This document shows positions 9,603 through 60,880 of a stretch of 64,000 nucleotides of DNA, one piece after another; position 1 is the first letter of the stretch, and each line of letters begins with the position of its first letter. Under the pieces are notes generated by a model. That model worked only from the letters and a program-made list of their open reading frames with translations. It ran no database searches and was not told the origin of the DNA. The position numbers were made by a program, and so were the translations under genes. Source of the DNA: Thermoleophilia bacterium (GTDB lineage Bacteria; Actinomycetota; Thermoleophilia; RBG-16-64-13); the NCBI GenBank assembly GCA_026415615.1, contig JAOAGT010000002.1:448545-512544 (forward strand), in the 5' to 3' direction.

Positions 9603-9654
9603 AGCTGAGCGCCCCGCTCGCCCGTCGGATCCGGGGCGAGCGGGGCGCTCAGCT
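9603..9654. terminator. long GC-rich palindromic hairpin between convergent genes, bidirectional terminator
   Basis: AGCTGAGCGCCCCGCTCGCCC at 9603-9623 pairs perfectly with 9634-9654, a 21-bp stem with a 10-nt loop. No strong U-tract. Confidence 0.6.
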
Positions 9655-9743: not shown

Positions 9744-11111
9744 TCACTGCCCCGGCCACGGTGGCTTCGGGTAAATGGGTTTAGCTGTCCGCTTTGGCCC
9801 TGGGTCTATTACCTCGATCACCCCGTTTTGCCACTGGCCGATGAAGCCAGCGTAACAATCGCGGGCAAGAAGCTGGTTCTCAAACCAAGTATCTCCCAGC
9901 ACAGTCTGGAAATGCTCAGTCTTTAGGACCTCAGCCACTTTCTTGTTGTCCAAAGTGCCGGCCTTTTCGATAGCTTGCTTCAACATGTCAAGCGCAGCCA
10001 CAAAGTAGGCATAGCCGTAGTAGTTCATGTTGGCTTCGGTTCCGACTCTTTGCAGCAGCTTGTCGTGGAGTTGAGCAAGAGCAGGTGAGCTATGCACGCT
10101 CCAGACTCCATAGCCGCAGACCCCCTCCACCACTTTGTAGCCTTGTTCTGGTCCTTTGTCGCCTCCCATGGCAAACGGGAAAGCGCCAAAGGTTGCTCCG
10201 GGGCCCATTACCAGCATGCGCGGGTTATAGCCCAGTTGCATCATCTGGGCCACCATCGGGAAGTTCTGATCTGGGTAGCAGGGTACGAAGAAGCAGTCAG
10301 GATCAGCCTGCTGCACCTTTCGTAGTATCTGAGTGAAGTCTGCGGTGTTGGCAGGAATTGCCTCGTCATAAAGCAGCTTGATTCCCGCGTTCTTGGCCTC
10401 CTGGCGCATAACCTCGGAGTACTCTAGCCCGTGGAGGTCATCGAGATACACCATAGCTACGCTCTTAACTCCCACTTCCTTGAATATATCGATGAGGGTT
10501 GGGATGTCGTAGTGATTTGAATAGCTGAGCAAGCCAAAGAACATCGGCAAGTCGGGCAGCACCTCTTCAATGCTCTTGGCCCCTGCTTCCCCCGAGATGA
10601 GCAGATAACCGTGGGAGTTCGCCACATTCGCGGCTGCGAAGACAAATGCTGTACTTGCGGGAGAAAGGATGAAGTCCACCTTGTCCTCGACCATAAGCTT
10701 CTCAAGGAGCCGCATGCAGGTGTCCATATCGCTCTGGTCGTCGTAGACTTTCATCTCGATGGGGAGTTTCTTGCCATACTCAGCTACGTAAATGCCGCCT
10801 TCGGCATTGACCTCTTCTACCCACATCTTATAGATGACACCCAAAGCATTTTGCTCGAAGAAGCTTAGTGGTCCAGAGATGGGACGGGCGGCTCCGATGA
10901 CTATCTTGTCTTTTCCGCCCAGAGTGGTGGCAGTAGAAGTTTCTGTACTAGGAGCAGCAGTAGTCGTAGGTCCGGATGTGGTCGAAGGTCCGGCAGTTGT
11001 GCTGGGTGCTGCCGTTGTAGTTGTCTCCTTCTCGCCACAAGCAGCAACCAGCAAGGCGACCGCGGCGAGTATGCATACAACGGCCAGAATTCGTAAGTGT
11101 TTAGATCTCAT
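9744..11111 (-). CDS. ABC-type substrate-binding lipoprotein, LivJ/Peripla_BP_6 family; orphan with no permease or ATPase nearby
   Basis: Lipobox LVAAC, then a Thr/Pro/Ala-rich linker, then a type-I periplasmic binding fold (GxLSFFEQ..., VAMVYLDD...). It is the last gene of the minus-strand operon. Confidence 0.8.
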   Translation of the reverse strand: MRSKHLRILAVVCILAAVALLVAACGEKETTTTAAPSTTAGPSTTSGPTTTAAPSTETSTATTLGGKDKIVIGAARPISGPLSFFEQNALGVIYKMWVEEVNAEGGIYVAEYGKKLPIEMKVYDDQSDMDTCMRLLEKLMVEDKVDFILSPASTAFVFAAANVANSHGYLLISGEAGAKSIEEVLPDLPMFFGLLSYSNHYDIPTLIDIFKEVGVKSVAMVYLDDLHGLEYSEVMRQEAKNAGIKLLYDEAIPANTADFTQILRKVQQADPDCFFVPCYPDQNFPMVAQMMQLGYNPRMLVMGPGATFGAFPFAMGGDKGPEQGYKVVEGVCGYGVWSVHSSPALAQLHDKLLQRVGTEANMNYYGYAYFVAALDMLKQAIEKAGTLDNKKVAEVLKTEHFQTVLGDTWFENQLLARDCYAGFIGQWQNGVIEVIDPGPKRTAKPIYPKPPWPGQ

Positions 11112-11284
11112 TTTTTATTCATCCCCCTCTCTTGCCTGTGCTGTCAGGAACGCACACGTTGCAGAATACAAACGCTAAACCGGATAAGCAATGCCTAGGG
11201 GCTACCGTGACCTGATGAGCAGGTGCTGATCCCCAGCACTGAAAAACCCCGCCCAGGCTTTTCTAAAGGTTAAATGGTGCGACG

Positions 11285-12025
11285 CTAATACTTGTCTGGA
11301 GCCGCACCGGGGGCCACACCGGGAGGAGGCGTCTGTATCGGTCTGCCGGTAACCGGATGAGAGCAGTGAAAAGGCAGAACCTCGTGCTCTGGCCAGCGGA
11401 GCGGCATTTGGTCGGCTAGTTCATCCGGACCATAAGGATCCTCGGGGTATGTGGTAGTGAGCAACGGTACAAAGTTAGGCGGCGCGAAAGCCCATCCATT
11501 CTCAAAAGTGCTAAACCATACCGGCCGATAGTCAAGCTTCTTGATCCGCCAGATGCCGTCGCGCTTGACGTAGACATTTTCATAGAGCGCCCCTTCCCAC
11601 CACTGTCGCGAGATGGTGGTGGGAGAGGGGTTGCGTTCGTAATGAGTGCCCGCCTGCATCAGAAGACGAAACCGGCCCCACGCTGTCTGCCGGTCGGGGG
11701 CGACGTCGATGACGTCCTGCATCATGGGGTGGTCAAGCAAGAAGCCGAACACAGGGCCATTCTTGCCGTTGGTGAACTGCTCGCGAAATCGCCCGCAGTA
11801 GAGACGGCGCGCACCTTCCTTGCCTCGGTAAATACCGCCGAAAAAATGAACTTCGCAATCGTCGTCGTAGCAATCCACGGCCTCGTCGTACATGCATTTG
11901 TCGATGAAGTAGCCGTAGAGATGCTGAAGCCGGCGAATTGCTTGTATGTCCTCAACCACCCCCAGGCGGTATTCGAGTTCTCTTACTCGCTCGCTAAGCT
12001 TCTCAAGCTCTGCAACCGGATCCAT
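11285..12025 (-). CDS. NTF2-like / SnoaL-like fold protein
   Basis: DIQAIRRLQHLYGYFIDKCMYDEAVDCY..., then a beta-rich C-terminus, typical of the NTF2-like superfamily. GGTGGGGGG RBS. Confidence 0.5.
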   Translation of the reverse strand: MDPVAELEKLSERVRELEYRLGVVEDIQAIRRLQHLYGYFIDKCMYDEAVDCYDDDCEVHFFGGIYRGKEGARRLYCGRFREQFTNGKNGPVFGFLLDHPMMQDVIDVAPDRQTAWGRFRLLMQAGTHYERNPSPTTISRQWWEGALYENVYVKRDGIWRIKKLDYRPVWFSTFENGWAFAPPNFVPLLTTTYPEDPYGPDELADQMPLRWPEHEVLPFHCSHPVTGRPIQTPPPGVAPGAAPDKY

Positions 12026-12066
12026 CTCGGCCCCCCCACCATTTGACTAGCTTGCTCCTCGATACT

Positions 12067-13092
12067 TCAGCTTGCTCCCCGGTACTTCTCAACACCCACC
12101 CCAATAGGCTGGGACATCAAAAAGAAAACTTGCTTTCTTATGTCTCTGATGATCAAAGGTCCCTGACTTACGTTTGGGGGGATATAGGCGAAGAAACTCT
12201 TGGTAATCACGTGCTTCTCGCCCCCAATCCAGAGCTCGACCTCAGCGCAAAGGTCCGTGATGTCCTCGTAGTTAAGACCCAGCATAGCCAGGGAGGTGCC
12301 GTGAGGAACGGCGTGCTCGTCCATGATCACCAACTCCGCCCTTGTCTCTTTGGTGGGCAGATACCATCTGGTGTCACAGCCAAACTCAGCATCAGGGATC
12401 ACGGTCTCGTCAATATAAGCAGCAGGACGAACGTATTCGGGGTCAAGGGGACGCATGTATTCTGGGCGCTTCACATCCGGAGGCGTGCCGAATACTACAT
12501 ACCGGGCGTATTTGGACTCGGCAGGGTCCACGTGTCTGGCCACTGGCGGCTCTTTCTGTTCCTCCTCTGCCTGTTTGGTTTTTTCGTCTTTCTCCCGTGT
12601 GTAGACCCCGCCTGGCCCCGAAGTCCAATGCACGGTCGGGCGGGAGAAATGATGGCCGGTCACCCCTCCTGAGAACACTGGCATATGAGGGAGCCCGGCT
12701 GGTACGTAGGCTACCCAACTGCTTGGGAGGGGAATAATTTCGTCACCCATCTGAATGGCTGTGGGGTCGGTTTTGCTCGGGTCGTCTGGATCGGTTCCCC
12801 ACCAAGAAAGCAGTTCGGGAAAGTCATGGACATGCGGAAACATGGTGGGTGTCTGGTAGCCCAGCTTGGCCAGGTCTTCCCAGGTTACCTGATTGGGATA
12901 GTCAGGAGGCCAAATCCAGGTGGTTTCCCCATAGTAGGCGCCAGGGATCACGTCGTGGTCGATCCAGTGGACATGCTCCATGCTAATCCGCTTCCCTTGG
13001 GCAGCCAGTTGACGCCTCTGCTCTGGGGTGGGGCCGGGCAAGAGGTGCTGCTTCTGCAATGTGGTGCAAATGTACTTGTCAAACTGACCCAT
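12067..13092 (-). CDS. bicupin, a metal-binding double cupin protein, function unknown
   Basis: The N-terminal half has cupin motif 1 (HVHDFPELLSWWG) and motif 2 (PAGLPHMP). The C-terminal half has a degenerate second cupin (HAVPHGTS...GEKHV). It is paralogous to 13137-13634 and 33431-33898. Confidence 0.6.
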   Translation of the reverse strand: MGQFDKYICTTLQKQHLLPGPTPEQRRQLAAQGKRISMEHVHWIDHDVIPGAYYGETTWIWPPDYPNQVTWEDLAKLGYQTPTMFPHVHDFPELLSWWGTDPDDPSKTDPTAIQMGDEIIPLPSSWVAYVPAGLPHMPVFSGGVTGHHFSRPTVHWTSGPGGVYTREKDEKTKQAEEEQKEPPVARHVDPAESKYARYVVFGTPPDVKRPEYMRPLDPEYVRPAAYIDETVIPDAEFGCDTRWYLPTKETRAELVIMDEHAVPHGTSLAMLGLNYEDITDLCAEVELWIGGEKHVITKSFFAYIPPNVSQGPLIIRDIRKQVFFLMSQPIGVGVEKYRGAS

Positions 13093-13136
13093 GGCCTTGT
13101 GCCCTCCCTTGACGTGTATCGCGCAGAACGCGCCGC

Positions 13137-13634
13137 CTATGATGTCCCTTTCCCGTAGGGGATTGTTTCAAAATTCATAACCTTGTGGGGATCGAAGTCC
13201 TTGTCTTGCTCAAAATACGGCTCTCTAGTTCCCTCCGGGCCAGCAAGCATGATCTCAACCTGAATTATGGGCTTGTCCACGCGAGTGACTTCTAACGGGC
13301 AGTGGGGAAGGCCAGGTGGGAGATGGACTAGCGTGGGCCGAGTGAATACGTGTTTTTCCATCTCGGGCCCAAAGTGGAGTACTACCTCAGCCTCAAATTC
13401 ATCGGGGTCTTCGGGATTTCCGCTGTACCAGGCCAGGAACTCGTGAAAATTGTGCGTGTGGCAGGGATTATCTCCTCGAAACGGCTTTCGCACAAACTGC
13501 AGGCCCATAGTAAGGGGAAACCCGAGCTGCTGGTGGCCGATCATAAGACCATCGAAGACTACCGTCCCATCTGACTTCATGCTGAGGCGCAAATGGGGCG
13601 GATGATGAATATATTGGTCATACTTTCCGCTCAT
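13137..13634 (-). CDS. cupin domain protein (paralog of bicupin N-terminal half)
   Basis: HTHNFHEFLAWYSG...VHLPPGLPHCP. I moved the start to MSGKYDQ, which is preceded by GGAGA. The track used 13646. Confidence 0.6.
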   Translation of the reverse strand: MSGKYDQYIHHPPHLRLSMKSDGTVVFDGLMIGHQQLGFPLTMGLQFVRKPFRGDNPCHTHNFHEFLAWYSGNPEDPDEFEAEVVLHFGPEMEKHVFTRPTLVHLPPGLPHCPLEVTRVDKPIIQVEIMLAGPEGTREPYFEQDKDFDPHKVMNFETIPYGKGTS

Positions 13635-13649
13635 GCTCGTCTCCATTGG

Positions 13650-14447
13650 TTACATTACCGATCCGCCTGAGACATGGAACACCTGTCCAGTCACATAGCT
13701 TGTAATGTCCGAGGCGAGGATCGCAATAGCATTTGCCATATCCCGCGCAGTGCCAAACCGGCCAAGCGGAAACTCACCCATGATGGCTGCCTGTCTTCTT
13801 TTCATCTCCTCTGGGGAAATGTTGGGGTCGGGCTCTCTTAGAATGGCTCCGAAGTTAGTGGGCACAGGACCGGGTGCCACACAGTTAACCCGAATTCCGT
13901 TTTTTCCTTCTACATACGCCAACTGCTTGGTGAACAAGTCGACGGCGTATTTGGAGATGGCGTACATACCCACCCCCATTTGGTACTGATGCGTGCTTCC
14001 CGAACCCACGTTCACGATGACCCCGTAGCCTCGTTCGCGCATATGAGGGACCACCGCCTGGGTGACGTTCATCGTGCCAATCAGGTTTAACTTAAGCTGC
14101 TTTTCCCAGACTGTAGGATCTTGCTTTTCGATGGGTACGTTGTCCTTGTGCAGGATAGCTCCGGCCACATTGCAGAGGATGTCAATCCGCCCAAATTCTT
14201 CGAGGACTTTCTGGACCATAGCTTTGACGGCCGCATTGTCAGTGATGTCGGCGCTTAGGGCAATACATCTTGGGCCCAAGCTGCGCACGGTTTCTGCGGT
14301 CTTGGCCAGGTTCTCCTCATCAATGTCTGTTACGGCGATGGCCTCGATCCCTTCCTCGGCCAACACCAAGGCCGTCTCTCTCCCTATCCCCACCTGGCTA
14401 GCTGCGCCCGTTACGAGGGCCACTTTGTTCTTGAAACCCAGATCCAT
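13650..14447 (-). CDS. short-chain dehydrogenase/reductase (SDR)
   Basis: ALVTGAASQVGIG is a TGxxxGxG-like motif. NVAGA, the catalytic YxxxK region (YAISKYAV) and PGPVPT are present. Confidence 0.9.
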   Translation of the reverse strand: MDLGFKNKVALVTGAASQVGIGRETALVLAEEGIEAIAVTDIDEENLAKTAETVRSLGPRCIALSADITDNAAVKAMVQKVLEEFGRIDILCNVAGAILHKDNVPIEKQDPTVWEKQLKLNLIGTMNVTQAVVPHMRERGYGVIVNVGSGSTHQYQMGVGMYAISKYAVDLFTKQLAYVEGKNGIRVNCVAPGPVPTNFGAILREPDPNISPEEMKRRQAAIMGEFPLGRFGTARDMANAIAILASDITSYVTGQVFHVSGGSVM

Positions 14448-14472
14448 GTTCGCGACTCCCTGCTTGTAGTGA

Positions 14473-16320
14473 TTATGGCCACAGCACTTGGGCTATGTCA
14501 TCGAGACCCAGCTCAAGCAGTTTGGCCTTGCTCGGCTTGCCCGTCTTCGTATCCCAGTCCATCTCGACCAGGTACTGATCGTAAATCTCCTCGTGCGTGA
14601 AGGTGATGCCGGCTCGTGGGCCCACGGTCTTGGGCGGTACGCCTCTCATCCTATCGGGGTAGAGGAAAGGCGTCTGGACACCCTCTCTAATGTTGAAGGC
14701 CTGCCTGACGTTGGTGATTCTTTCACCGGTCTTAAGCAGCTCGTCTGCGCTGATGTCCTCCCAGCCGGTCAGGGCTCTCAGAGCTTCGAGCAGTTGGTCC
14801 ACATGTGGATATGCTCCAATCACAAACTGGCAAAGCCCCATGGCGCTTGCTGCGTGCATGAAGTTGGTGCTGATCTTGTGGTAAAGGCCACGGCCGGTAC
14901 GTTGCTCGCGTGGTATATCGGGTATATTCAAGCCTGGTGGGTGTTGCCCGCCTCCCTGATTGTGTCTTCCGGGGGTGGGGTCGCAGCCATAACCAATGGC
15001 AAATCCCCAACCGCCACGAGGGTCGTGACCAGCAATCTCTTGACCGCCAATGTGCATGGCATATTTCTCTGCGCCCCGACCAATCTTCTCGGCCGCGCGC
15101 TTTACGCCGTCGGCGATGATGTCGCCAAAGCCCTCACGCTTGGCCATCTTCTCGACCATTGCCACGATAGCCTTGTGATTGCCCCAGGTCATCTCAAGGC
15201 CGTCTGTGTCCGCCTGAGAAAGCACGCCGTTTTCATAACACTCAATGGTGAAGGCGATGCAAGCACCCGCAGAGATGGTGTCTAGGCCATAACGATTGCA
15301 GATGTCGGCGGCCAGGATGATGGAGTCAAGGTTTGAGTTCAGGAGGTTGCTCCCCAGCATAGCAAGCGTCTCGTACTCGGGTTTATGAGCGCCCTCCTCA
15401 TACTTGTATTCGCCTGTTCCGGCTTTCATTAGGCCCCCGCAGGCAATGGGGCAACGCCAGCAGGCAAAGCGGCGCATCTGCTTTTCTAATACCGCTTGCC
15501 CTCCACAAGCTGCGTAGTCGGGAAGATCGACGGTAACCACACCGGCCCAATTCTTGGCTGGAGCGTCGTCGATTATGCAGCACATCTCGAATATGCCGGG
15601 GGTGCCGGTTTCGTGTAGCTGCTCAGCATGGCCGGTAAGGGCGGCCACGTGCTTTTTTCTGAGCTCTTTCATTAACTCGGGGTTGTAGGCCGGCGGGATG
15701 AGATTGCCCTGGGCCACGATAGCCTTTAGACGCTTGGAGCCCATGACCGCGCCGAGACCTGAACGGGCCGCGGCTCGGCCCTTATTGTTGATTACCCCGC
15801 TAATTAGAGCGAGCTTCTCGCTCGCTGGACCGATGCAGGCTACCTCCAGGTTCTTGCCGTGTTTGGCGCGCAAGATATCTTCAGTTTCTACAGTGTCTTT
15901 CCCCCAAATCTCTGCGGCGTCCAGGAGTTGGGCCTCCCCATTGTGAAGGTAAAGGTAGACCGGTTTCTCGGAAATTCCGGTGAAAAAGACGGCGTCGTAA
16001 CCAGCGAACTTAAGCTGCGGGCCAAAGCTCCCTCCCGAGTTGGCGTCCCCCCATCCTCCGGTGAGAGGAGATTTGCCGACTACTGTGTAGCGGGAGCCGC
16101 CGACTACGTCGGTGCCAGTGGTTATGCCGGTCACAAAACCCAACGTGGCGTCGGGGCCTAGGGGATCTACTCCTGGCTTTTGCCGGTCCCAGAGCACTCG
16201 CGCGCCTAGCCCGTATCCGCCCAGGTATTTGCGGGCGGCCTGTTCGTCGAAAGTATCTACGGTTATCTCGTGGGTTGTAAGATCCACCCAGAGGATTTTC
16301 TCCATAGCTCCAAAAGCCAA
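14473..16320 (-). CDS. tungsten-containing aldehyde:ferredoxin oxidoreductase (AOR family)
   Basis: The N-terminal domain aligns by eye to canonical AORs: KYLGGYGLGARVLW, GGSRYTVVGKSPLTGGWGDANSGG and KFAGYDAVFFTG. The length is 615 aa. TTG start 5 nt after AAGGAGGT. Confidence 0.9.
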   Translation of the reverse strand: MAFGAMEKILWVDLTTHEITVDTFDEQAARKYLGGYGLGARVLWDRQKPGVDPLGPDATLGFVTGITTGTDVVGGSRYTVVGKSPLTGGWGDANSGGSFGPQLKFAGYDAVFFTGISEKPVYLYLHNGEAQLLDAAEIWGKDTVETEDILRAKHGKNLEVACIGPASEKLALISGVINNKGRAAARSGLGAVMGSKRLKAIVAQGNLIPPAYNPELMKELRKKHVAALTGHAEQLHETGTPGIFEMCCIIDDAPAKNWAGVVTVDLPDYAACGGQAVLEKQMRRFACWRCPIACGGLMKAGTGEYKYEEGAHKPEYETLAMLGSNLLNSNLDSIILAADICNRYGLDTISAGACIAFTIECYENGVLSQADTDGLEMTWGNHKAIVAMVEKMAKREGFGDIIADGVKRAAEKIGRGAEKYAMHIGGQEIAGHDPRGGWGFAIGYGCDPTPGRHNQGGGQHPPGLNIPDIPREQRTGRGLYHKISTNFMHAASAMGLCQFVIGAYPHVDQLLEALRALTGWEDISADELLKTGERITNVRQAFNIREGVQTPFLYPDRMRGVPPKTVGPRAGITFTHEEIYDQYLVEMDWDTKTGKPSKAKLLELGLDDIAQVLWP

Positions 16321-16398
16321 CGCCTACCTCCTTAGCTCGATGACGCCGTATTTATGACTATGGTCTTTATGACCCACTCAGACATCCGTTTGGCTTAG

Positions 16399-17715
16399 TT
16401 ACTTGCCGGTCACACTGGGAAGCCATGTCGCTAGCCCCGGGATAAGGAACAGGAGCACTACCATCAGCAGCCCGAGGGCAAAGAACGGCATGGAAGAACG
16501 AAACACCTGCCCCAGGGTAGCATGTGGTGGTGCTATAGCCTTCATAGTGTAAACATCCAGTCCAAACGGCGGAGATATCAGACCAAGCTGGATGTTAAGG
16601 AGAGAAACGACCCCGTACCAGATCAGATCGTACCCGAGGGCCTTAGCCAGCGGGAAGAAGATTGGCACCGTGATCATAACGATGCTGGCCGGATCCATGA
16701 ACATGCCGAGGAAGATAAGAATCACTTGAGTAGCGATGATTATGTAGATGGGGGCAATGTTGGCGCCTGTGGCCATATCGATCAGCTTTTGAATGGCCCC
16801 GGTGGTGGCCAGGATGCGGCTGAAGCTAATTGAGCCCACCACAATGAACATAACCATGACGGTGACGCGTACGCAGCTCATGGCGGATTTCGTTACCGTT
16901 TTCCAGCTTAACTGTCGGTAGAAAGCCGCCAGGACAAAGCAGGCTAACACGCCTAGAGCCGCTGCCTCACTCGGGGTGGCCACACCCAGGTATATGCTTC
17001 CGATCACCGCCAGAATGACAATGCCGATTGGGAGGATGTGGAATGTAAACGTGCGAAGCTTGTCTGTGAGGGAGACCTTTTCCACCTCGTAGGTGGGGGC
17101 AAGCGAAGGATCAAGTTTGCAACGTATCATGATGTAGAGGGCAAAGAGAATGGCCAGAAGCACACCGGGGATGATAATGGCCATGAGCAGCTTCCCTACT
17201 GAAATTTGCCCGATGGCTCCCAAAAAGACGGCAAGCGCGCTCGGTGGGATCAGAATGGCTAGGGTCCCGCTGGTGACGATGGGACCGTAAATCATAGCTG
17301 GTTTGTATCCTCGCGCTTCCATTTCGGGTACTAGTACCCGTCCAAGGATGCCAATCGATCCTCCACTGATGCCAATCATCGTCCCCAGAAGGACGCCGGA
17401 CCCTACGGCGAGTAGGCTTAAGCGGCCGGGCACCTTGCCTAGGAGCTTGTCTACCGCGCCCACTATTCGTGCGCCTGCTCCCGAAGAGAAGATGACGTCT
17501 CCCATCAGCACAAAAAGCGGGATGGGTAAAAACGCATAGTTTGCTACCGCGCTGTAAAAGCTCATTGCCAGCTGATCAAGACCCGGCGCCCCGCCCCAAA
17601 ACAGGACAGAACCAATGATGCACGTGAAGGTGAAAGCGAAACATATGGGCATGCCAGTCATCATGATGACAATGAGGCAACCAAACATGATAAGCAGTGA
17701 CGCCAACCATTCCAT
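16399..17715 (-). CDS. TRAP transporter large permease subunit (DctM family)
   Basis: A 438-aa polytopic membrane protein with the DctM pattern. GGAGG RBS. Confidence 0.9.
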   Translation of the reverse strand: MEWLASLLIMFGCLIVIMMTGMPICFAFTFTCIIGSVLFWGGAPGLDQLAMSFYSAVANYAFLPIPLFVLMGDVIFSSGAGARIVGAVDKLLGKVPGRLSLLAVGSGVLLGTMIGISGGSIGILGRVLVPEMEARGYKPAMIYGPIVTSGTLAILIPPSALAVFLGAIGQISVGKLLMAIIIPGVLLAILFALYIMIRCKLDPSLAPTYEVEKVSLTDKLRTFTFHILPIGIVILAVIGSIYLGVATPSEAAALGVLACFVLAAFYRQLSWKTVTKSAMSCVRVTVMVMFIVVGSISFSRILATTGAIQKLIDMATGANIAPIYIIIATQVILIFLGMFMDPASIVMITVPIFFPLAKALGYDLIWYGVVSLLNIQLGLISPPFGLDVYTMKAIAPPHATLGQVFRSSMPFFALGLLMVVLLFLIPGLATWLPSVTGK

Positions 17716-17724
17716 GGCTGCCTC

Positions 17725-18273
17725 CTACTCTGCTTTACCAGCTGGAGGCTGGGTCTCCGCTGGGGTCGGGGGACTGGTCTGCCGGTAGGCTTTAAAGTAG
17801 TTGACCGCGTGCCTTACTGCCTGGATTGTCAGCACCAGAAACGATATGGGAATGATCATCTCGATGGGCCACTTAACCGGATTAAGCACAGTAGCCAAGA
17901 TGAAGTGGTTGAGGTAGTCGTTGATAGTTAGCCGCGCGGTCAGAAAAAGACATAGGAGGCACAGGGCAACTACTACGCATGAAGTGGCGAAGTTAAGCAA
18001 GTTCTGGGCTCTCTTTGAAAGCATTCCAAGAATGGATTCCATCCTTACATGCCCGTGGTCGCGGTAGATGGCGGCTGTGCCAAGAAAGGTAAGCCACACC
18101 ATCGTGTAGGTCAGAAGCTCATACAAAGGTGCCCAGGTGAAGTCGACTGTCTTTCTGATGATTACGTCCTGTGCTATGGCCAAAGTGTCGAGAAGGATCA
18201 AGATGGCCGAGAGCAGCAGGAGAAAGTTAACAAGCTTGTCAAAAGCTCGGCCAGCTTTCTGTAAGAAGCGCAT
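17725..18273 (-). CDS. TRAP transporter small permease subunit (DctQ family)
   Basis: A 182-aa membrane protein with 4 TM segments. It lies between the DctP-like and DctM-like genes. Confidence 0.8.
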   Translation of the reverse strand: MRFLQKAGRAFDKLVNFLLLLSAILILLDTLAIAQDVIIRKTVDFTWAPLYELLTYTMVWLTFLGTAAIYRDHGHVRMESILGMLSKRAQNLLNFATSCVVVALCLLCLFLTARLTINDYLNHFILATVLNPVKWPIEMIIPISFLVLTIQAVRHAVNYFKAYRQTSPPTPAETQPPAGKAE

Positions 18274-18458
18274 GTCACTAACCTCTCACAGGTTGGTTGA
18301 AGTACGCGCAAGCAGAGAAGCAGAGGGCGCGAAGCGGCCCTGGACAGGGCCGCTTCGCGCCCTCACTTGGGTCTTGCCTGGTTCCGCAGGATGGCAAACC
18401 ACCCCGATCCGCCTAGCCTACGACCTGTCTAGCCTATGGCTGGCTAATCCAGGCACCT

Positions 18459-19610
18459 TTACTTGGCGCGCTCAAAGTCTGGATTCACGAGCCATTCCTT
18501 GAGCTTGGGGCCAATCTCGGGCCACCTCGCGATGTCTTCGGCCCACATCGACTCGCGGTACTTCAGATAGAACTGCTTTGACTCCTCAGGCGACAGGTGA
18601 ATGATCTTAATACCCGCAGCTTCAAGATCTGCCTTTACCTTTTCCACTGTCTTGTGGAAGTGGTCCGCCATGTCAATCTCGGTTTGAATCATGGCTTGGG
18701 TGAGCACGGCCTTTTGTTTCTCAGTGAGGCTCTCCCACTTCTTGAGGTTCATGATCATCATGCCGCCGCAGGAGCTGAACGGCTCGTCCAGCATAGCCTT
18801 GGTCACAGGCGTGAGTCCGAAGTCCTGAATGCCGGGGATGCCGATGTTGTAGCCGTCGACTGTCCCGCGCTCCATGGCTGTGAAGTACTCAGTAAAGTCT
18901 ATGGGCACGCAGACTGCGCCGAGGGCCTCAATGAAGGAACGGTTGGAACCGCCGGTGGCTGCGATCTTGAGCCCCTTCAAGTCAGCTAGGCCGTTGATAA
19001 CCTTGCCGAGGTAAATGACCGTCTGCTCCTGGGGACGAGACGAGACAGAGGCCCCCAAGTACTTGATGCCGTTCTTAGCAAATTCTTCCTCGTAGTACTT
19101 AAAGGCTGGGTTGCCGTTGCGCAGCTCTGGCGGGCTGTATTCAGCTCGCCCGATGGTGCTGCATCCGGGGACCATGGTGTCGCAATAGGCGGACATTACG
19201 CTCGCGATATCCATCGTGCCCCTTTGTACTGCAGCTGGCTGGTCCGGGGCGGGGATAGCCTCTGGGCCGTTGAACTTGATGGTCATCTTGCCAGCCGAGT
19301 ATTCCTGGACCTTGTTAATGAAGTCGCGGTGCCAGTCGGCTCCCGGGGGAATATCGGGCAAGAAGCAGGCCATGGAAAGCTCGATAGGCTCTACATCAGC
19401 AATTACCTGAGGCCCCGACGCAGCTGTCGTTTCTGTAGATGGCGCAGTAGTCTCAGTGGGCGCAGCCGTAGTGGTTGTCGCGGGTGCTTGGGTGGTAGCG
19501 GTGGTAGCCGGTGCGGCTGTGGTTGTGGTGGCTTCTTCCTCTCCGCACGATACCGCCAGGATAGACAGCGCAAGTACACAGCAAATGGCTATTATGGCCA
19601 GTTTCCTCAT
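18459..19610 (-). CDS. TRAP transporter substrate-binding protein (DctP family), probable lipoprotein with Thr-rich linker
   Basis: The start is moved to MRKLAIIAICCVLALSILAVSCGEE. The track ORF extends to 19736. A TTTAAP-type linker precedes a DctP-like fold. Confidence 0.85.
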   Translation of the reverse strand: MRKLAIIAICCVLALSILAVSCGEEEATTTTAAPATTATTQAPATTTTAAPTETTAPSTETTAASGPQVIADVEPIELSMACFLPDIPPGADWHRDFINKVQEYSAGKMTIKFNGPEAIPAPDQPAAVQRGTMDIASVMSAYCDTMVPGCSTIGRAEYSPPELRNGNPAFKYYEEEFAKNGIKYLGASVSSRPQEQTVIYLGKVINGLADLKGLKIAATGGSNRSFIEALGAVCVPIDFTEYFTAMERGTVDGYNIGIPGIQDFGLTPVTKAMLDEPFSSCGGMMIMNLKKWESLTEKQKAVLTQAMIQTEIDMADHFHKTVEKVKADLEAAGIKIIHLSPEESKQFYLKYRESMWAEDIARWPEIGPKLKEWLVNPDFERAK

Positions 19611-19838
19611 GGTGCCCCCCAATCCTAAGATTGCCTGATTTTGCCAAGTCTGCCTGCTGACGTGGAAGTCATTTCTCGCAAGTGCCGAGATGTGCTCTGG
19701 TCCGCTCCAACCTCCTTTGCTCCCGTTTGCTGTCAAGCCGGAACCTGTTGATCAGTGCCTCCCGGTATCGCCAAGCGTATAGCGTGGTGCTCCCGGGCCG
19801 AGACTGCTACTCCGGCGCGCCCGACTATGTTAGTGAGG

Positions 19839-19909
19839 ACTACTAGCACACGCTACTAGCGAATGCAACCGGTCTGTGTTATGTAGGACAGGTAATCGAG
19901 TTACTAGAC
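19839..19909. promoter_or_regulatory. candidate operator: CTACTAGC direct repeats in the 450-bp divergent region between dctP and tetR
   Basis: CTACTAGC occurs at 19840-19847 and 19853-19860. A third copy, TTACTAGAC, is at 19901-19909. Confidence 0.3.
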
Positions 19910-20184: not shown

Positions 20185-20832
20185 ATGAAGCCCGAACAAA
20201 AGAAGGAGGCGGTTATCAAAGCCGTACTGCGGGTGATAGCCAAACACGGGGTTCAAGGTACCACCACCGCTCGTATCGCTGCAGCTCTGGGGGTATCTGA
20301 GCCGACCATCTACCGAGTTTTCCCGAGCCGGCGGGAAATGCTTCTGGCTGCGGCGCAAAGTCTATGGCGGCAACGCCGTGAAGAGCTCGAGGCGTTTGTT
20401 CCAGTTGACGCTATGGACTATCTAAGGAAGTTATCTGCGCATCACACCGCTGGCATCCAGAAAACCAGAGTAACCCGGTATCTTTACGAGCTTTCGGTTG
20501 CGCGGCCTTCTGATGGACTCCGTGACTACTTGCGCGGGGAAATGATCGCCGAAGCAGAACGTCTTGCGGCTATTGTGGAGCAAGGACAAAAAGAAGGGTG
20601 CATCCGTGCAGACGTAGACCCCGGGGAAACAGCCTGGCGGATCATGACCGTTTACTGGCTTGAGGCTATGGCCCGGCTCCATGGGCTTGAGGACATTCTT
20701 CTCACCGGGTTTTCCACCCGGTTTTTCGACGGGATCCTAACCGACATTGCTGCCGCGCCTCTAGATGCACCAGGTGAGCAGCAAACTGTAGGGCAAAGTA
20801 GCGTCAAAGCGAGCGGTCTTGAGGGAGTGTGA
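20185..20832 (+). CDS. TetR/AcrR family transcriptional regulator
   Basis: KAVLRVIAKHGVQGTTTARIAAALGVSEPTIYRVFPSRREM is the TetR HTH. I moved the start to MKPEQKK. The 103 aa the track puts upstream are low-complexity, so they are not called. Confidence 0.8.
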   Translation: MKPEQKKEAVIKAVLRVIAKHGVQGTTTARIAAALGVSEPTIYRVFPSRREMLLAAAQSLWRQRREELEAFVPVDAMDYLRKLSAHHTAGIQKTRVTRYLYELSVARPSDGLRDYLRGEMIAEAERLAAIVEQGQKEGCIRADVDPGETAWRIMTVYWLEAMARLHGLEDILLTGFSTRFFDGILTDIAAAPLDAPGEQQTVGQSSVKASGLEGV

Positions 20833-20836
20833 ATAG

Positions 20837-22093
20837 ATGGATCACCAGTCTCCGCAAGTCTTGTACCAAGAGAGATTAAAGAGGATTGAGGACGCCATAG
20901 CACTGCGCCAGCCGGATAGAGTCCCGATCGTGATGTCTGCCGGATATTTTCTGGCTGATCTGGGAGGCATTACCAAACAGCAGCTGCTTGAGGACCCTGA
21001 ACTTTGCCAACAGCTGCTAGAAAAGGCCGCCCTTGAATTTCAGCCTGATTCAATCTGGGGTCCTATGCCGGCGGATCCAACTCCCTCCCTTATTCTGGGG
21101 GACAGACAGAGCGCTTGGCCCGGACACCAGCTTTCGCCCAACAGCCAGTTCCAGTTCGTTGAAGGCGAATTCATGAAGGAAGACGAGTACGAGGAATTCC
21201 TGGAAGATCCCACCGACTGGACCATCCGCACCTATTTGCCGCGGGTGTTTGGGGCGCTTGAAAGCTTTGCGCAGCTGCCGCCTCCGATTCTGTTCCTGTT
21301 TGGCGGGGGTTTTGGCCTTTCTAATTTTGCAATGCTGACCTCAGGGGCATTCGCGGAGTCTTTCAAAGCTTTTGCCAAGGCCTTACAGGCGGTAGCCGAA
21401 GGCCATGAGCGGGCAGCCAGAAATCATGAGCGCATGGCGGCGTTGGGTTTTCCGCCGAGCTTCATGAACGGTCCGATTCTAACCGCTCCCTTCGACGTGA
21501 TGTCTGATGCGGTTCGTGGGATGCGCGGCATTATGCTCGACGTTATTCGGCGTCCCGACAAGCTGCTTGCGGCGCAAGAAAAGGTGATGCGCTTTGAGCT
21601 TAAGTGGGCTCTTGATTTTTGCCGGGCTACGGGCGCAAAGAGAGCTTTTCTGCCTCTTCACAGGGGGTCGGATGGCTTCATGTCGCTGAAGCAGTTTGAG
21701 ACCTTGTACTGGCCGCAGCTGAAGAAGGTTCTCGAGACCCTCATAGAGAACGGCGTGACCCCCGTGGTGTTCTACGAAGGCTGCTGGAATCAAAGACTGG
21801 AGTATCTAGCGGAGCTACCCAAGGGCAAGAGCGTAGGATGGTTCCAAGCAAGCGACATCTTCAAAGTCAAGGAAGTGCTTGGCGACACCATGTGCATCAT
21901 GGGGGGGATGCCAAACTCGCTGCTTAAGGCTGGTCCTGCCGAGGAGGTGCGTGCGTTCACCAAACGCCTTTGCGAAGAGGTTGGCAAGGGCGGGGGATTC
22001 ATCATGACCACCGCGGTTGGCGAATTGGCTGGCTGCGATCCGGATCTCATCAAGGTGTGGGTGGAGGCGACCAAGGAATTTGGGAAAGCTTAG
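20837..22093 (+). CDS. uroporphyrinogen-decarboxylase (URO-D) family protein, MtaA/CmuA-like methyltransferase or decarboxylase
   Basis: 418 aa. The N-terminal RLKRIEDAIALRQPDRVPI, then FKVKEVLGDTMCIMGGM, EEVRAFTKRL and GGGFIMTTAVGE resemble the URO-D TIM-barrel family used by corrinoid-dependent methyltransferases. Confidence 0.5.
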   Translation: MDHQSPQVLYQERLKRIEDAIALRQPDRVPIVMSAGYFLADLGGITKQQLLEDPELCQQLLEKAALEFQPDSIWGPMPADPTPSLILGDRQSAWPGHQLSPNSQFQFVEGEFMKEDEYEEFLEDPTDWTIRTYLPRVFGALESFAQLPPPILFLFGGGFGLSNFAMLTSGAFAESFKAFAKALQAVAEGHERAARNHERMAALGFPPSFMNGPILTAPFDVMSDAVRGMRGIMLDVIRRPDKLLAAQEKVMRFELKWALDFCRATGAKRAFLPLHRGSDGFMSLKQFETLYWPQLKKVLETLIENGVTPVVFYEGCWNQRLEYLAELPKGKSVGWFQASDIFKVKEVLGDTMCIMGGMPNSLLKAGPAEEVRAFTKRLCEEVGKGGGFIMTTAVGELAGCDPDLIKVWVEATKEFGKA

Positions 22094-22123
22094 CAAAGCA
22101 CAGGAAAGCTTAGGAATGAAACC

Positions 22124-22858
22124 ATGGACCTCAAGTTGAAGGATAAAGTTGCGCTCGTTACAGGAGCAGGGAGTCCCATAGGCTATGGCAGGGCAATTGC
22201 TCTCACCCTGGCCGAAGAGGGCTGTCGAGTTGCCTGTGCTGACCTACGACTTGACTGGGCAGAGGAGACCGCTGCCCTAATCAGAGAGGCAGGCGGCGAA
22301 GCCTTCGCAGTCAAGGTTGACGTGACCGACATGGCCCAGGTGGAGGCCATGGTGGAGGCGGTTGTTGCCCGATACGGGCGGATCGACATTCTCGTTAACA
22401 ACGCTGGCAAAAGCAGCATCGACAAACCTTTCATGGAAAAGACCCGGGCAGACTGGGATCTCGATATTCAGGTGAATTTGTATGGCCAAATGAACGTGGC
22501 GCGCGCAGTGATTCCTCACATGGCCAGGCAAGGCTATGGGCGCATCATTAACACTTCCGGCGGGCAGGGCTTGCCGACCGTATCCACTTACGGAGCAGCC
22601 AAAGCAGGGGTGGAAGCATTTACACATTCGTTGGCCATGGAGGTTGCCTCCTTGGGGATCATCGTAAACGCCATTGCCCCGGGGCTGGGGGAGACCGGCC
22701 TGATTTCGGCCAGCGAAGAACACAAAGAGGGGTATCGGCGTATGTCGGCCCTAAAACGCCTTTGCACTCCAGCCGACGTGGCACCTGCGGTGGCGTTTCT
22801 AGCTTCGGATGTTTGTAGCTACATGGTTGGGCAGTGCCTCAGGTTGAGTACCCACTAG
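22124..22858 (+). CDS. short-chain dehydrogenase/reductase (SDR), FabG-like
   Basis: ALVTGAGSPIGYG, NNAG, YGAAKAG (YxxxK) and PG. Confidence 0.9.
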   Translation: MDLKLKDKVALVTGAGSPIGYGRAIALTLAEEGCRVACADLRLDWAEETAALIREAGGEAFAVKVDVTDMAQVEAMVEAVVARYGRIDILVNNAGKSSIDKPFMEKTRADWDLDIQVNLYGQMNVARAVIPHMARQGYGRIINTSGGQGLPTVSTYGAAKAGVEAFTHSLAMEVASLGIIVNAIAPGLGETGLISASEEHKEGYRRMSALKRLCTPADVAPAVAFLASDVCSYMVGQCLRLSTH

Positions 22859-22873
22859 CAAGGAGTACCAGTC

Positions 22874-23095
22874 ATGGCCATACGTCACTTTAGTCGTGAC
22901 GATTGCACGGGATGCGGGATATGTGTCGCTGCGTGTCCCATGGATGTGCTTCGTCTGGATGAGGAAGCGCAGAAGGCAACCGTAAGCTATCCCGACGACT
23001 GCATCGCCTGCTGGGGTTGCGAGTCGTTCTGTCCGCAGGGTTGTTTCGATATTTCTCCCGAACGGGCCCGCGGGGAGCTACCCGCTCCTTACTGA
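22874..23095 (+). CDS. 2x[4Fe-4S] ferredoxin
   Basis: CTGCGICVAACP and CIACWGCESFCP. 73 aa. Confidence 0.85.
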   Translation: MAIRHFSRDDCTGCGICVAACPMDVLRLDEEAQKATVSYPDDCIACWGCESFCPQGCFDISPERARGELPAPY

Positions 23096-23118
23096 GTCTC
23101 GCGGAGTAACAAAGGCGA

Positions 23119-24849: not shown

Positions 24850-24900
24850 CTGGTAGTTGGATAGGCGGCCCTCAACGGTAAAGGAGGCGGGAAGAGCGCG

Positions 24901-26367: not shown

Positions 26368-26429
26368 GCTTTGCTTCTGAGGCGAGGCCTGTTGGTGAGA
26401 CATTGGTCGTAGCAGAAGGAAGGAGCGAG

Positions 26430-27704: not shown

Positions 27705-27721
27705 GAAGGAGGTCGAAAGCC

Positions 27722-33049: not shown

Positions 33050-33430
33050 TGTATTCTCCTTTCCACTCTGAGCCGTGGTCTAGCTTCGTTGTGCCCATGA
33101 GTGGGACGCACCCTGGGACGGTTTGGTTCCGTTGCGAAGTCCAAGAGGGTACCGATCGGATCGGAGGCTGCGTACACATCTTGGCGGACCGCACCCCCTT
33201 CTGGCAACTGCTAGAGGTTGGCAGTCGCTTGGCGCGACATGCGTCTCGGGTTAAGCGGGAACGTGGAGGGAAAGACGTGCGGGGACGACTGCAGCTTGAA
33301 GATCACTGCTTGTTCTGTGAACGAGAGATATCTTCCTATGTGGCCAGCTACCTCTATACTTGCAGGCGGTGCTTTGGAAGCGCCTGGAACTAAGCTTCAT
33401 TTGACGGAACCGGGCCAGAAAGGAAAACCC

Positions 33431-33898
33431 ATGTGCGCAGACGACGTTTCGAGGTATCTAGTTGATCACCCTCCCTACGAAGTGACGCCGCCCGCTGTCG
33501 AGGGTCGCACTTCTCCCATGACTCTGATGAGTCGCAACCTTGTCCCCGAAGCCAATGTCTACGTGGAGGGCGGCTGGATCTTCGGTCCCCCAGATCCAAA
33601 TCCCCACATTCTTGAGCACACTCACAACTACGATGAGCTGGTCATACACGTTGGGTCCGACCCAGAGAACCCCGAGGACCTCGGAGCCGAAATAGAGTTC
33701 ATGCTTGACGGCAAGCCTCTTCTCATTAGCCGGACGTCTTGTGTCTTTGTGCCCAAGGGTATGAAGCACGGCCCGCTTACCTGGAAGCGGTTCACGCGCC
33801 CGCATATCGAACTAACGGTCATGTTAGGAGCAGGCACTCTCGCTGAGGCTGATCCCGGAGGCCATCTGGCTGCCTCAGAGCAGAAGGACACTCCCTAA
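33431..33898 (+). CDS. cupin domain protein (third paralog of the 12067 and 13137 family)
   Basis: HTHNYDELVIHVGSDPENP...VFVPKGMKHGP. I moved the start to MCADD, preceded by AAAGGAAAA. The track starts at 33218. Confidence 0.6.
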   Translation: MCADDVSRYLVDHPPYEVTPPAVEGRTSPMTLMSRNLVPEANVYVEGGWIFGPPDPNPHILEHTHNYDELVIHVGSDPENPEDLGAEIEFMLDGKPLLISRTSCVFVPKGMKHGPLTWKRFTRPHIELTVMLGAGTLAEADPGGHLAASEQKDTP

Positions 33899-41587: not shown

Positions 41588-41588
41588 C

Positions 41589-60815: not shown

Positions 60816-60880
60816 CTGTGAGGGGAGAAGGGCGTCAAAGGAAACGGCACCATGGCCGGGATGATTCCCCTGTGGTCTTC

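Follow-up and report, generated by a model that had tools for sequence, protein, structure and literature searches.

The window, the whole 64,000-nucleotide stretch analysed here, derives from a Thermoleophilia-class MAG, and the host is an uncultured actinobacterium of this class. Its genes, together with the range of taxa in which the cupin family described below occurs, make an anaerobic lifestyle probable. Nine co-directional minus-strand ORFs, which a sequence-only reading had delineated, were confirmed with unchanged boundaries, as were all of its family calls, including two Pfam-less 'cupins'. From upstream to downstream, they encode the TRAP substrate-binding lipoprotein DctP (18459..19610; PF03480 at 9e-29), the small membrane subunit DctQ (17725..18273; PF04290 at 8e-21), the large membrane subunit DctM (16399..17715; PF06808 at 2e-72, with TIGR00786 above its cutoff), an aldehyde:ferredoxin oxidoreductase (AOR) of the P. 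furiosus type (14473..16320; AFOR_N at 9e-75, AFOR_C at 7e-101), a classical SDR oxidoreductase (13650..14447; adh_short at 2e-50), a 169-aa single-domain metal cupin (13137..13646), a 341-aa bicupin of the same unnamed family (12067..13092), an NTF2-like protein with a SnoaL_4 domain and a C-terminal arm (11285..12025; SnoaL_4 at 8e-24), and a LivJ-type (Peripla_BP_6) lipoprotein (9744..11111; PF13458 at 6e-46). The intergenic gaps in this order are 185, 9, 78, 25, 3, 44, 41 and 173 nt, so that the range of 3–80 nt previously given for all of them is wrong for the dctP–dctQ spacer and for the spacer before the LivJ-type gene. A purine-rich Shine–Dalgarno-like sequence precedes eight of the nine starts (AAGGAGG for the TTG start of the AOR gene); the small cupin, an exception to the earlier claim that every start has such support, sits 3 nt past the SDR stop instead, the distance reported before, and is translationally coupled to the SDR.

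Divergent from dctP, as had been described, lies a gene for a TetR-family regulator (20185..20832, plus strand; TetR_N at 1e-12), whose start ATG at 20185 leaves a spacer of 574 nt, not 575 nt. It is the first gene of a plus-strand arm that continues, co-transcribed with tetR, over 20837..29212. Pfam matches identify in this arm a URO-D-like protein (20837-22093, after a 4-nt gap), a second SDR (SDR2; 22124-22858), an FAD_binding_2 flavoprotein (23119-24849) and a GlcDEF-like trio (FAD_binding_4, CCG and FAD_binding_4; 24901-29212), and the arm also encodes a 2x[4Fe-4S] ferredoxin (22874-23095). The operon is best explained as the minus-strand arm of a two-armed catabolic island under TetR.

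Conserved gene order and candidate regulatory elements

Eight of the nine genes (dctPQM and the genes for the AOR, SDR, small cupin, bicupin and NTF2-like protein) recur with the divergent tetR in the same order at about 12 independent Actinomycetota MAG loci (L001, L004–L008, L010, L011, L079, L081 and L090, with a fragment in L009), at 60–80% protein identity, an arrangement far beyond chance. The synteny includes TetR, URO-D and SDR2, and in most of these loci a divergently placed orthologue shares 53–68% identity with the TetR protein, with a near-invariant HTH. These data uphold the earlier proposal of a single catabolic unit, conserved and flanked by a divergent TetR, except for the LivJ-type gene. 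That gene adjoins the lyase gene in the window and, among the other loci, in L089 alone (80% identity), and is not found at this position in the remaining syntenic loci; it lies downstream of the conserved operon, outside it, as an addition particular to this lineage. The 173-nt spacer before it holds no significant structure and no terminator. Its PDB relatives are urea-type binders (E ~1e-10), and nothing among these relatives or in the locus comparison ties it to aromatic acids, at odds with its former placement as an aromatic-acid-linked member of the operon. The accompanying analogy with Rhodopseudomonas is not relevant to a Thermoleophilia-class MAG. By contrast, the remark that the lipoprotein has no cognate ABC permease or ATPase proved right, as Pfam scans of large ORFs and a six-frame motif scan found none in the window. 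Past the LivJ-type gene, a strong GC hairpin (9603..9654, minus strand; MFE z-score −6.2) likely terminates transcription in both directions, serving also the convergent plus-strand gene that ends at 9591.

Alignment of the tetR–dctP spacer across orthologous loci revealed a conserved non-coding block (19825..19887, minus strand) between divergent flanks. Its invariant core, CTAGTAGCGTGTGCTAGTAGT (19839-19859), comprises CTAGTAG units with a 13-nt period, and an exact 15-mer of this core occurs once in the window and in seven orthologous loci, with one mismatch in two more. The block, which overlaps the promoter region, is a candidate operator for TetR. In the dctP–dctQ spacer, a GC-rich hairpin of 19 bp (18323..18364, minus strand; MFE z-score −6.2) has counterparts in all ten orthologous loci, in which this spacer contains a long perfect hairpin of differing sequence; it probably acts by mRNA stabilisation or attenuation to lift expression of the binding protein above that of the membrane subunits. 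Both conserved elements support regulated co-expression. The two spacers of 173–185 nt and the variable LivJ-type gene would suit a chance run of co-directional neighbours with no functional unity, but we consider this extremely improbable, given the order kept in about 12 loci from independent assemblies, the gaps of 3–78 nt at six of the eight junctions, a long spacer that holds a conserved hairpin rather than a terminator and promoter, and the conserved operator-like element.

An atypical TRAP binding protein and a γ-formaldehyde lyase homologue

The transporter shares its three-component P/Q/M composition with DctP-type TRAP systems (SiaPQM and the aromatic-acid-binding TRAP proteins cited previously), and in both a stem-loop follows the binding-protein gene, which is the first of the three. 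However, the DctP protein of the window is a lipoprotein with a long Thr/Ala/Pro-rich linker, as in a monoderm host, and lacks the conserved arginine (SiaP R147) that gives carboxylate specificity (PMC4646407). In the alignment, its LKGLKIAAT segment lies where SiaP and the PDB relatives 4mnc, 4pe3 and 8t9t carry the arginine, and the equivalents of both Arg147 and Arg127 (SiaP numbering) are missing from all 11 orthologues, that is, the window protein and ten others. The premise that this TRAP system is a carboxylate importer is therefore doubtful, and an Arg-less DctP would suit the uptake of neutral phenolic dimers, of which DGPD is an example.

LdpA and PcfL are cofactor-less γ-formaldehyde lyases that convert lignin β-1 and β-5 dimers to stilbenes (PMC9942872, PMC11323797). 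The NTF2-like protein, which had been left with no assigned role, is a full-length homologue of these enzymes: it matches the LdpA structures (PDB 8ABT/U/V/W) with E values of 2e-56 to 5e-53, is 43% identical to LdpA over 220 aa, and aligns up to position 228 of the 251-residue NaLdpA chain (8abt). PcfL stands at the same distance from LdpA (44% identity; PMC11323797). The equivalents of the LdpA catalytic or binding residues Tyr35, Asp40, Tyr74, His97, Glu143, Tyr147 and Tyr165 are invariant in 27 family members. Two ligand-contact positions of LdpA are changed (Gln170 to Phe and His183 to Asn), and the substrate thus need not be DGPD or DC-C. Two homologues of the same clade (L091 and L094) stand alone, which weighs against the lignin-dimer pathway proposed below.

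A comparison with the LdpA–LsdA (β-1) and PcfL–LsdD–FerD–LigW (β-5) pathways of Novosphingobium aromaticivorans and Sphingobium sp. SYK-6 (PMC9942872, PMC11323797, PMC12997858) revealed that both sides have an NTF2/SnoaL_4 lyase of the same length class with matching catalytic His–Asp dyad, Glu and Tyr residues, accompanying SDR-type Cα dehydrogenases, an aldehyde-oxidising enzyme as the next component, and clustering of the genes for the lyase, alkene processing and aldehyde oxidation. By contrast, the window operon is devoid of an RPE65 lignostilbene dioxygenase, an NAD-dependent aldehyde dehydrogenase and LigW, has the AOR and two unnamed cupins instead, and includes TRAP uptake with an Arg-less binding protein, in an uncultured anaerobe-type Actinomycetota lineage rather than an aerobic sphingomonad. 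Sister-clade lyase homologues (51–62% identical) have an adjacent RPE65-type lignostilbene dioxygenase gene in 25 of the 31 loci with enough flank, and many also have ALDH, LigW-like Amidohydro_2 and PhcF/G-like DUF3237 genes; an AOR or bicupin gene accompanies none of 72 sister-clade loci, and RPE65 is absent from all ~80 bicupin loci and from the window. The AOR and the two metal cupins are found where the sister clade has RPE65 and often ALDH, although a shared place is no evidence for a shared reaction.

AOR, SDR and metal cupins

The AOR (1aor, E = 3e-97) is intact: both the CxxCxxxC-plus-C ligands of the cluster and the counterparts of Glu313 and His448 are conserved. It shares the two-domain AFOR architecture and these ligands and active-site residues with the P. 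furiosus (1AOR) and Aromatoleum aromaticum (PMC6365974) enzymes, and broad aldehyde oxidation coupled to low-potential carriers would be expected. It differs from them in having no AorA or AorC partner genes, in its operon with an SDR, cupins and a lyase, and in the translational coupling of some relatives to the bicupin. The SDR has BbsD as its best PDB match, but this match is generic; its adjacency to the small cupin is conserved across loci, and we propose that it may act as a benzylic Cα alcohol/ketone dehydrogenase. The central place previously given to the AOR and SDR is supported.

Two routes had been offered for these enzymes. In the first, an imported organic (aromatic) acid would be reduced by the AOR to an aldehyde and by the SDR to an alcohol, with the cupins and NTF2-like protein as accessories. 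The AOR does adjoin an alcohol dehydrogenase-type enzyme, and AORs are reversible, as established in acetogens, for example (PMC12727526). We nevertheless regard acid reduction as very improbable, because it would require a very low-potential ferredoxin with no gain of carbon or energy, leaves three conserved genes without a role, and conflicts with the missing carboxylate-specificity arginine. The second route, aldehyde oxidation, fits the comparative data better, as aldehyde dehydrogenases, enzymes that work oxidatively, take the place of the AOR in sister loci.

The 169-aa and 341-aa proteins, for which we found no Pfam or NCBIfam match, were correctly called cupin paralogs: the former aligns to each half of the latter (E = 7e-8 and 4e-6), HxHx3E...PxGxxH motifs are present, and the fold is confirmed. 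The N-terminal domain of the bicupin has a canonical 3-His/1-Glu site (H87, H89, E93 and H136). The bicupin is only ~9–14% identical to the bicupin enzymes OxdC, quercetin 2,3-dioxygenase YxaG and the BacB/AerE isomerases and has no PDB sequence match; it further differs from them in its degenerate C-terminal metal site, its restriction to uncultured anaerobe-type lineages and its partnership with a paralogous single-domain cupin.

Proposed pathway

We suggest, with a probability of roughly 0.45, that the operon encodes an anaerobe-type pathway for lignin-derived phenylpropanoid dimers, in keeping with the plausible earlier idea of aromatic, plant-derived substrates. The atypical TRAP transporter would import such a dimer, or a related 4-hydroxyphenyl compound with a γ-CH2OH group, perhaps assisted in the window lineage by the LivJ-type lipoprotein, and the SDR would interconvert Cα alcohol/ketone stereoisomers in the manner of the sphingomonad enzymes LigD/L and LdpB/C. 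The lyase, whose homology and catalytic residues are clear and whose substrate is predicted, would then remove the γ-carbon as formaldehyde via a quinone methide, yielding a stilbene or alkene. From their position, the metal cupins, which hold the genomic place of the sister clade's O2-dependent dioxygenase, may turn this product into one or more aldehydes. Where aerobes employ NAD-dependent aldehyde dehydrogenases, the AOR would form acids by oxidising the aromatic aldehyde(s) and perhaps also formaldehyde, passing electrons to ferredoxin, perhaps that encoded in the divergent arm. TetR would set expression at the operator-like element, and the hairpin after dctP is expected to give surplus binding protein. 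A lyase, an O2-sensitive AOR and two metal-cupin proteins in one cluster suggest an oxygen-free route of lignin-dimer breakdown. Two further observations speak for this reading. AOR–bicupin adjacency extends outside the operon and across phyla (L003/L038, with a 4-nt overlap; Desulfobacterales L073/L080; Chloroflexi L058/L052), and the window contains further markers of anaerobic aromatic metabolism, namely pyrogallol–phloroglucinol transhydroxylase-like α- and β-subunits, a URO-D-like protein and a B12-binding protein.

The distribution of the cupins bears on a different reading, in which AOR, SDR, cupin and bicupin form a self-contained module for other substrates (α-hydroxy/α-keto acids or polyphenol-derived hydroxy-ketones), the bicupin supplying the AOR with an aldehyde through metal-dependent isomerase, lyase or decarboxylase activity, and the LdpA-like lyase being a lineage-specific add-on funnelling in an extra substrate. 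Chloroflexi L058 and L052 have the four-gene core but no lyase, and AOR–bicupin pairs with neither SDR nor lyase occur in L003, L073 and L080. The GlcDEF-like 2-hydroxy-acid dehydrogenase trio recurs beside the bicupin (L044, L061, L076, L013 and L003/L038), and most Dehalococcoidia bicupin genes are solitary or lie beside SDR, Zn-ADH, ABC or GlcDEF-like genes. Because the core can be lyase-free and most Dehalococcoidia bicupins sit elsewhere, the cupins may serve more general carbonyl chemistry, unrelated to stilbenes. We hold this reading to be somewhat unlikely, as the lyase is fixed in the operon in Actinomycetota (~12 loci) and DctP is devoid of the arginine that acid substrates would call for.

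The lignin-dimer pathway could also run at low O2, with the cupins as O2-dependent Fe/Mn dioxygenases that cleave the stilbene as LSD does; the Mn-cupin TM1459 oxidatively cleaves styrene-type alkenes (PMC5031596). This variant appears improbable, since members of the cupin family come from Dehalococcoidales, Desulfobacterales and other MAGs of anaerobe type and show a tight linkage with AOR, an O2-sensitive family, and since the window contains the further anaerobic markers named above.

A conserved divergent operon and its candidate control elements

The ORF listing and the profile searches bear out the nine co-directional genes that the sequence-only reading had described on the minus strand at 9744-19610; the window has a G+C content of 55-58%. 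From the upstream end, these genes encode consecutive P, Q and M components of a TRAP transporter (dctP, 19610-18459, PF03480; dctQ, 18273-17725, PF04290; dctM, 17715-16399, PF06808), an aldehyde:ferredoxin oxidoreductase (AOR; 16320-14473, AFOR_N and AFOR_C), a classical SDR (14447-13650), a 169-aa small cupin (13646-13137), a 341-aa bicupin (13092-12067), a SnoaL_4/NTF2-like lyase homologue (12025-11285; PF13577, 8e-24) and a LivJ-type lipoprotein with a Peripla_BP_6 domain (11111-9744). The gaps measure 185, 9, 78, 25, 3, 44, 41 and 173 nt, so that the range of 3-80 nt given earlier fails at two junctions. A purine-rich Shine-Dalgarno-like sequence supports eight of the nine starts claimed to have one, including the TTG start of the AOR gene (AAGGAGG); the exception is the small cupin, which starts 3 nt past the SDR stop. 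The TetR gene was correctly placed as divergent and upstream of dctP, with its ATG at 20185, 574 nt away.

The order tetR (divergent)-dctP-dctQ-dctM-AOR-SDR-small cupin-bicupin-lyase recurs in 11 of the loci that we compared (L001, L004-L008, L010, L011, L079, L081 and L090), and L009 carries a fragment of it. All of these contigs come from Actinomycetota MAGs or metagenomes, their proteins are 60-80% identical, and the divergent tetR-URO-D-like-SDR2 unit is likewise conserved. The nine-gene arrangement is genuine, and the unit is conserved. Of the compared loci, the window and L089 alone have the LivJ-type gene after the lyase gene, and their two LivJ-type proteins are 80% identical. In most syntenic loci (L001 11092-11742; L007, L079 and others), but not in L009, L081 or the window, a second, distant SnoaL_4 gene (~216 aa, ~25% identity to the lyase) lies between the bicupin and lyase genes.

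The regulator has a TetR_N domain, and its orthologues share 53-68% identity and an HTH that hardly varies. The spacer that it shares with dctP contains a conserved block of ~60 nt between diverged flanks, so that an HTH regulator and a conserved element occur together, as in a TetR-regulated divergent operon. Seven loci carry an exact copy of the 21-nt core of the block, CTAGTAGCGTGTGCTAGTAGT (19839-19859), and two others differ from it at a single position; judged by this conservation, it is a candidate operator that would overlap the promoter. The dctP-dctQ spacer contains a 19-bp GC hairpin (18323-18364; z = -6.2), and all ten orthologous spacers form a long hairpin, each with a sequence different from that of the window. 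The recurrence of a hairpin at the same place with a different sequence suggests a selected stem-loop that favours expression of the binding protein. No significant structure was detected in the lyase-LivJ spacer, and a strong hairpin lies 3' of the LivJ-type gene (9603-9654). An Rfam scan of 9-21 kb found no credible RNA family, and scans for sigma-70 and terminator consensus sequences found no enrichment relative to shuffled sequences.

An LdpA/PcfL-type lyase homologue with exchanged neighbours

The PDB matches of the lyase homologue are the LdpA entries 8ABT, 8ABU, 8ABV and 8ABW (E 2e-56 to 5e-53). LdpA is a cofactor-less diarylpropane lyase that converts erythro-DGPD, a lignin beta-1 dimer, to lignostilbene and formaldehyde via a quinone methide, and its His97-Asp40 dyad is essential (PMC9942872); mutagenesis has established that Tyr35, Asp40, Tyr74, His97, Glu143 and Tyr147 matter. 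PcfL, the only other characterised member of the family, converts the phenylcoumaran acid DC-C (beta-5) to a stilbene and formaldehyde, and is 44% identical to LdpA with 8 of the 11 LdpA active-site residues in common (PMC11323797). The window protein is 43% identical to NaLdpA over 220 residues (pairwise E 1e-59). Its residues 12-228 match residues 10-228 of the 251-aa NaLdpA chain, and the alignment extends almost to the C-terminal end, the site of the trimer-stabilising arm. In a 27-sequence alignment, the counterparts of the acid-base dyad of motif I (His99 and Asp42 in the window protein), of Glu143 and the oxyanion-hole residues Tyr35 and Tyr147 (Glu144, Tyr37 and Tyr148), and of Tyr74 and Tyr165 (Tyr76 and Tyr166) are invariant. 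At two columns that vary across the family, the window protein has Phe in place of Gln170 (motif II triad) and Asn in place of the beta-ring binder His183. Homology to LdpA, together with the invariant catalytic residues, makes a well-supported case from sequence comparison that the window protein belongs to the LdpA/PcfL lyase family. Four LdpA-like SnoaL_4 proteins (P0291, P0328, P0332 and P0379) carry the JGI label 'carotenoid cleavage dioxygenase', which is probably a mis-annotation inherited from the neighbouring RPE65 gene.

Lyase homologues of the sister clade, 51-62% identical to the window protein, originate in soils and in bacteria that include Paenibacillus, Trebonia and Steroidobacteraceae. 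For 31 of their metagenome loci, the contig extends at least 1.6 kb in both directions; in 25 of these, an RPE65-family gene of the lignostilbene dioxygenase type lies no more than 3.5 kb from the lyase gene, usually directly adjacent; aldehyde dehydrogenase, LigW-like Amidohydro_2 and PhcF/G-like DUF3237 genes are also common neighbours. Neither AOR nor bicupin occurs in any of 72 sister-clade loci. RPE65 is absent from 80 bicupin loci, from the syntenic loci and from the window, and an aldehyde dehydrogenase gene occurs only once among them, ~10 kb away. Thus, whereas the sister loci carry RPE65 and aldehyde dehydrogenase genes, the neighbours of the lyase gene have been replaced in the Actinomycetota clade: the AOR, the SDR and two cupins stand where relatives have an O2-dependent dioxygenase and NAD-dependent aldehyde dehydrogenases. 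Two homologues of the window clade (L091 and L094) are surrounded by unrelated genes; even inside this clade, the lyase gene is therefore not always tied to the operon.

As the aldehyde-oxidising enzyme of an anaerobe, the AOR would be a straightforward substitute. The protein is closest to the Pyrococcus furiosus enzyme, and its cluster and active-site residues are intact: the CxxCxxxC motif and distal Cys of the 4Fe-4S cluster and the equivalents of Glu313 and His448 are all present (CWRCPIAC, GLCQF, PEYE and GRHN in the alignment to 1aor). No tungstate transporter is encoded in the window. The PDB matches of the SDR (BbsD best, followed by 7alpha-HSDH and FabG) are generic and carry no specificity signal, and the cupins would, by their position, be the alkene-processing step.

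The best-supported reading of these observations, tentative at a probability of roughly 0.45, is that the lyase-based pathway for phenylpropanoid dimers from lignin exists here in an anaerobe-type variant, in which the AOR would act instead of aldehyde dehydrogenases and the cupin pair would take the place of the stilbene dioxygenase. To our knowledge, all characterised routes for C-C-linked lignin fragments end in an O2-dependent stilbene dioxygenase. Our literature search found no paper linking LdpA-type lyases with AOR, cupins or anaerobes, and according to a study of lignin-amended anoxic sediments, the genes for the process without O2 are not known (PMC10116835). For the breakdown of such fragments without O2, the operon supplies a small candidate set (lyase, two cupins, SDR and AOR). 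Widespread uncultured Actinomycetota of soil and sediment have this set in conserved form, and all five proteins can be expressed and assayed with existing substrates (DGPD, DC-C and lignostilbene).

An unnamed cupin family

Neither window cupin matches a Pfam or NCBIfam model, and PDB sequence searches with both returned no relative. Both are nevertheless cupins, of an unnamed family: fold comparison revealed the double-stranded beta-helix, and the motifs G(x)5HxH(x)3-4E(x)6G and PxGxxH are present. The small cupin aligns with each half of the bicupin, and its site residues are H63, H65, E69 and H115. Across 42 bicupin homologues, H87-x-H89-x3-E93 and H136 of the N-terminal barrel are invariant or near-invariant, and the C-terminal metal site is degenerate. 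The 120 homologues listed are all 'hypothetical' and have no Pfam domain, and a look-up of the exact bicupin sequence among contigs gave no match. Only 449 of 1.84 billion cluster representatives matched in a profile search, with the core family forming one full-length 50% cluster, and Pfam Cupin_2 is reached by distant relatives only, 28 of 47. The hosts are uncultured Actinomycetota, Dehalococcoidia, other Chloroflexota, Desulfobacterales and one Leptospirales MAG, and none of 80 genome loci comes from a cultured organism. This is a family of several hundred sequences with no described function and no Pfam or NCBIfam model.

Further paralogues occur elsewhere in the window and in orthologous loci. 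One, at 33218-33898 on the plus strand (226 aa, no Pfam match), shows 31% identity to the 169-aa cupin across the region of the motifs. Another, a small cupin of ~136 aa that is absent from the window, is flanked by the URO-D-like gene and SDR2 in the divergent arms of L001 (482-892), L005, L006 and L010, so that SDR and small-cupin pairs occur twice in these loci. The presence of pyrogallol transhydroxylase-like genes in the window raised the idea that a cupin might be a dihydrophloroglucinol cyclohydrolase (DPGC), which we rejected, as DPGC belongs to the 'cyclase'/isatin-hydrolase family and not to the cupins.

A specific proposal for the pair is that the two metal cupins, possibly with the SDR, convert the stilbene or alkene product of the lyase to aromatic aldehyde(s) without O2, for oxidation by the AOR. 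In one chemically plausible form, hydration via a quinone methide would precede C-C cleavage of the retro-aldol type. We consider the proposal unlikely as it stands; if true, it would give the first enzymatic route for anaerobic cleavage of C-C-linked (beta-1 or beta-5) lignin dimers and a new reaction class for cupins.

A serious rival is a more general role for the bicupin, which would make an aldehyde by acting as an isomerase or lyase. In Chloroflexi (L058 and L052), the AOR-SDR-cupin-bicupin core stands on its own, with no lyase gene, and AOR-bicupin pairs occur in L003 and L038, where the two genes overlap by 4 nt and a radical-SAM gene is present, and in the Desulfobacterales loci L073 and L080. 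In L003 (8157-12245), a radical-SAM/SPASM gene follows the overlapping pair, and ETF and GlcDEF-like genes are divergent. The bicupin genes of Dehalococcoidia are mostly solitary or beside genes for SDR (19 loci), Zn-ADH (10), SnoaL_4 (8), ABC binding proteins (8) or GlcDEF-like FAD_binding_4/CCG proteins (7), and Chloroflexi neighbourhoods are mixed, with no single partner. A GlcDEF-like trio in the window (24901-29212) has a counterpart of 64-73% identity in L044, immediately upstream of the bicupin gene. The shared theme of these neighbours is alcohol, aldehyde and carbonyl redox chemistry, which is what makes the general role a serious competitor to an alkene-processing step specific to the lyase pathway.

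Binding proteins and the wider window

The arginine conserved in TRAP binding proteins (SiaP R147) is replaced in the window DctP by Ala ('LKGLKIAAT'), and all ten orthologues likewise have LKG[LM]K[IM]-A at this position; the equivalent of SiaP R127 is also missing. Relatives retain Arg in the aligned position (SiaP R147; 'KIRIS' in 4mnc, 'KVRSP' in 4pe3 and 'KVRTT' in 8t9t). The numbering of the SiaP sequence in this alignment agrees, and the alignments to PDB entries do not depend on that sequence. The R147-type arginine gives TRAP binding proteins their carboxylate specificity (PMC4646407), and its absence from DctP and all ten orthologues weakens the premise of a carboxylate importer. The earlier interpretation was partly right. 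The missing arginine makes a neutral phenolic ligand, such as a DGPD-type dimer, possible, and the clade counters the rule that equates this arginine with carboxylate. A literature search for the ligand of the closest DctP structure (4MNC/4MNI) found nothing; it is presumably an aryl keto-acid, an assumption that we did not use as evidence.

The LivJ-type protein has a Peripla_BP_6 domain, and no ABC permease or ATPase was found within the window, in agreement with its earlier description as an orphan. Its proposed tie to aromatic acids finds no counterpart among its PDB relatives, which are weak, urea-type binders (E ~1e-9). Both binding lipoproteins have long Thr/Ala/Pro-rich linkers past the lipobox cysteine (19460-19550 and 10930-11040, minus strand), which explain spurious 'New_glue' Pfam matches. 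In monoderm hosts, tethered binding proteins typically carry linkers of this kind.

The tightly spaced plus-strand arm begins with tetR and continues with URO-D-like, SDR, ferredoxin, FAD_binding_2 flavoprotein and GlcDEF-like genes. The ferredoxin (22874-23095, plus strand; 73 aa, 2x[4Fe-4S]), encoded between the second SDR and the flavoprotein, is a possible electron acceptor of the AOR. Elsewhere in the window, a pyrogallol-phloroglucinol transhydroxylase-like pair is encoded on the minus strand, with an 834-aa molybdopterin alpha subunit that has an AhtL-like first domain (41589-44093) and a 283-aa beta subunit with Fer4_11 and CarboxypepD_reg domains (40736-41587); the pair (40736-44093) adjoins an acyl-CoA dehydrogenase and a LysR gene. 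The pair is a marker of anaerobic trihydroxybenzene metabolism. The window also encodes ETF/ETF-QO, a B12-binding protein, a formate-dehydrogenase-like molybdopterin enzyme (51626-54199, plus strand) and a FocA formate/nitrite channel (59946-60950, minus strand); the last two could process formate that arises from formaldehyde, but they lie 30-40 kb away from the operon. These features fit a degrader of plant phenolics that is presumably anaerobic. Two paralogous Methyltransf_11 proteins of 500-575 aa, 40% identical (7864-9591 and 29360-30883, both plus strand), bracket the entire two-armed island in direct orientation.
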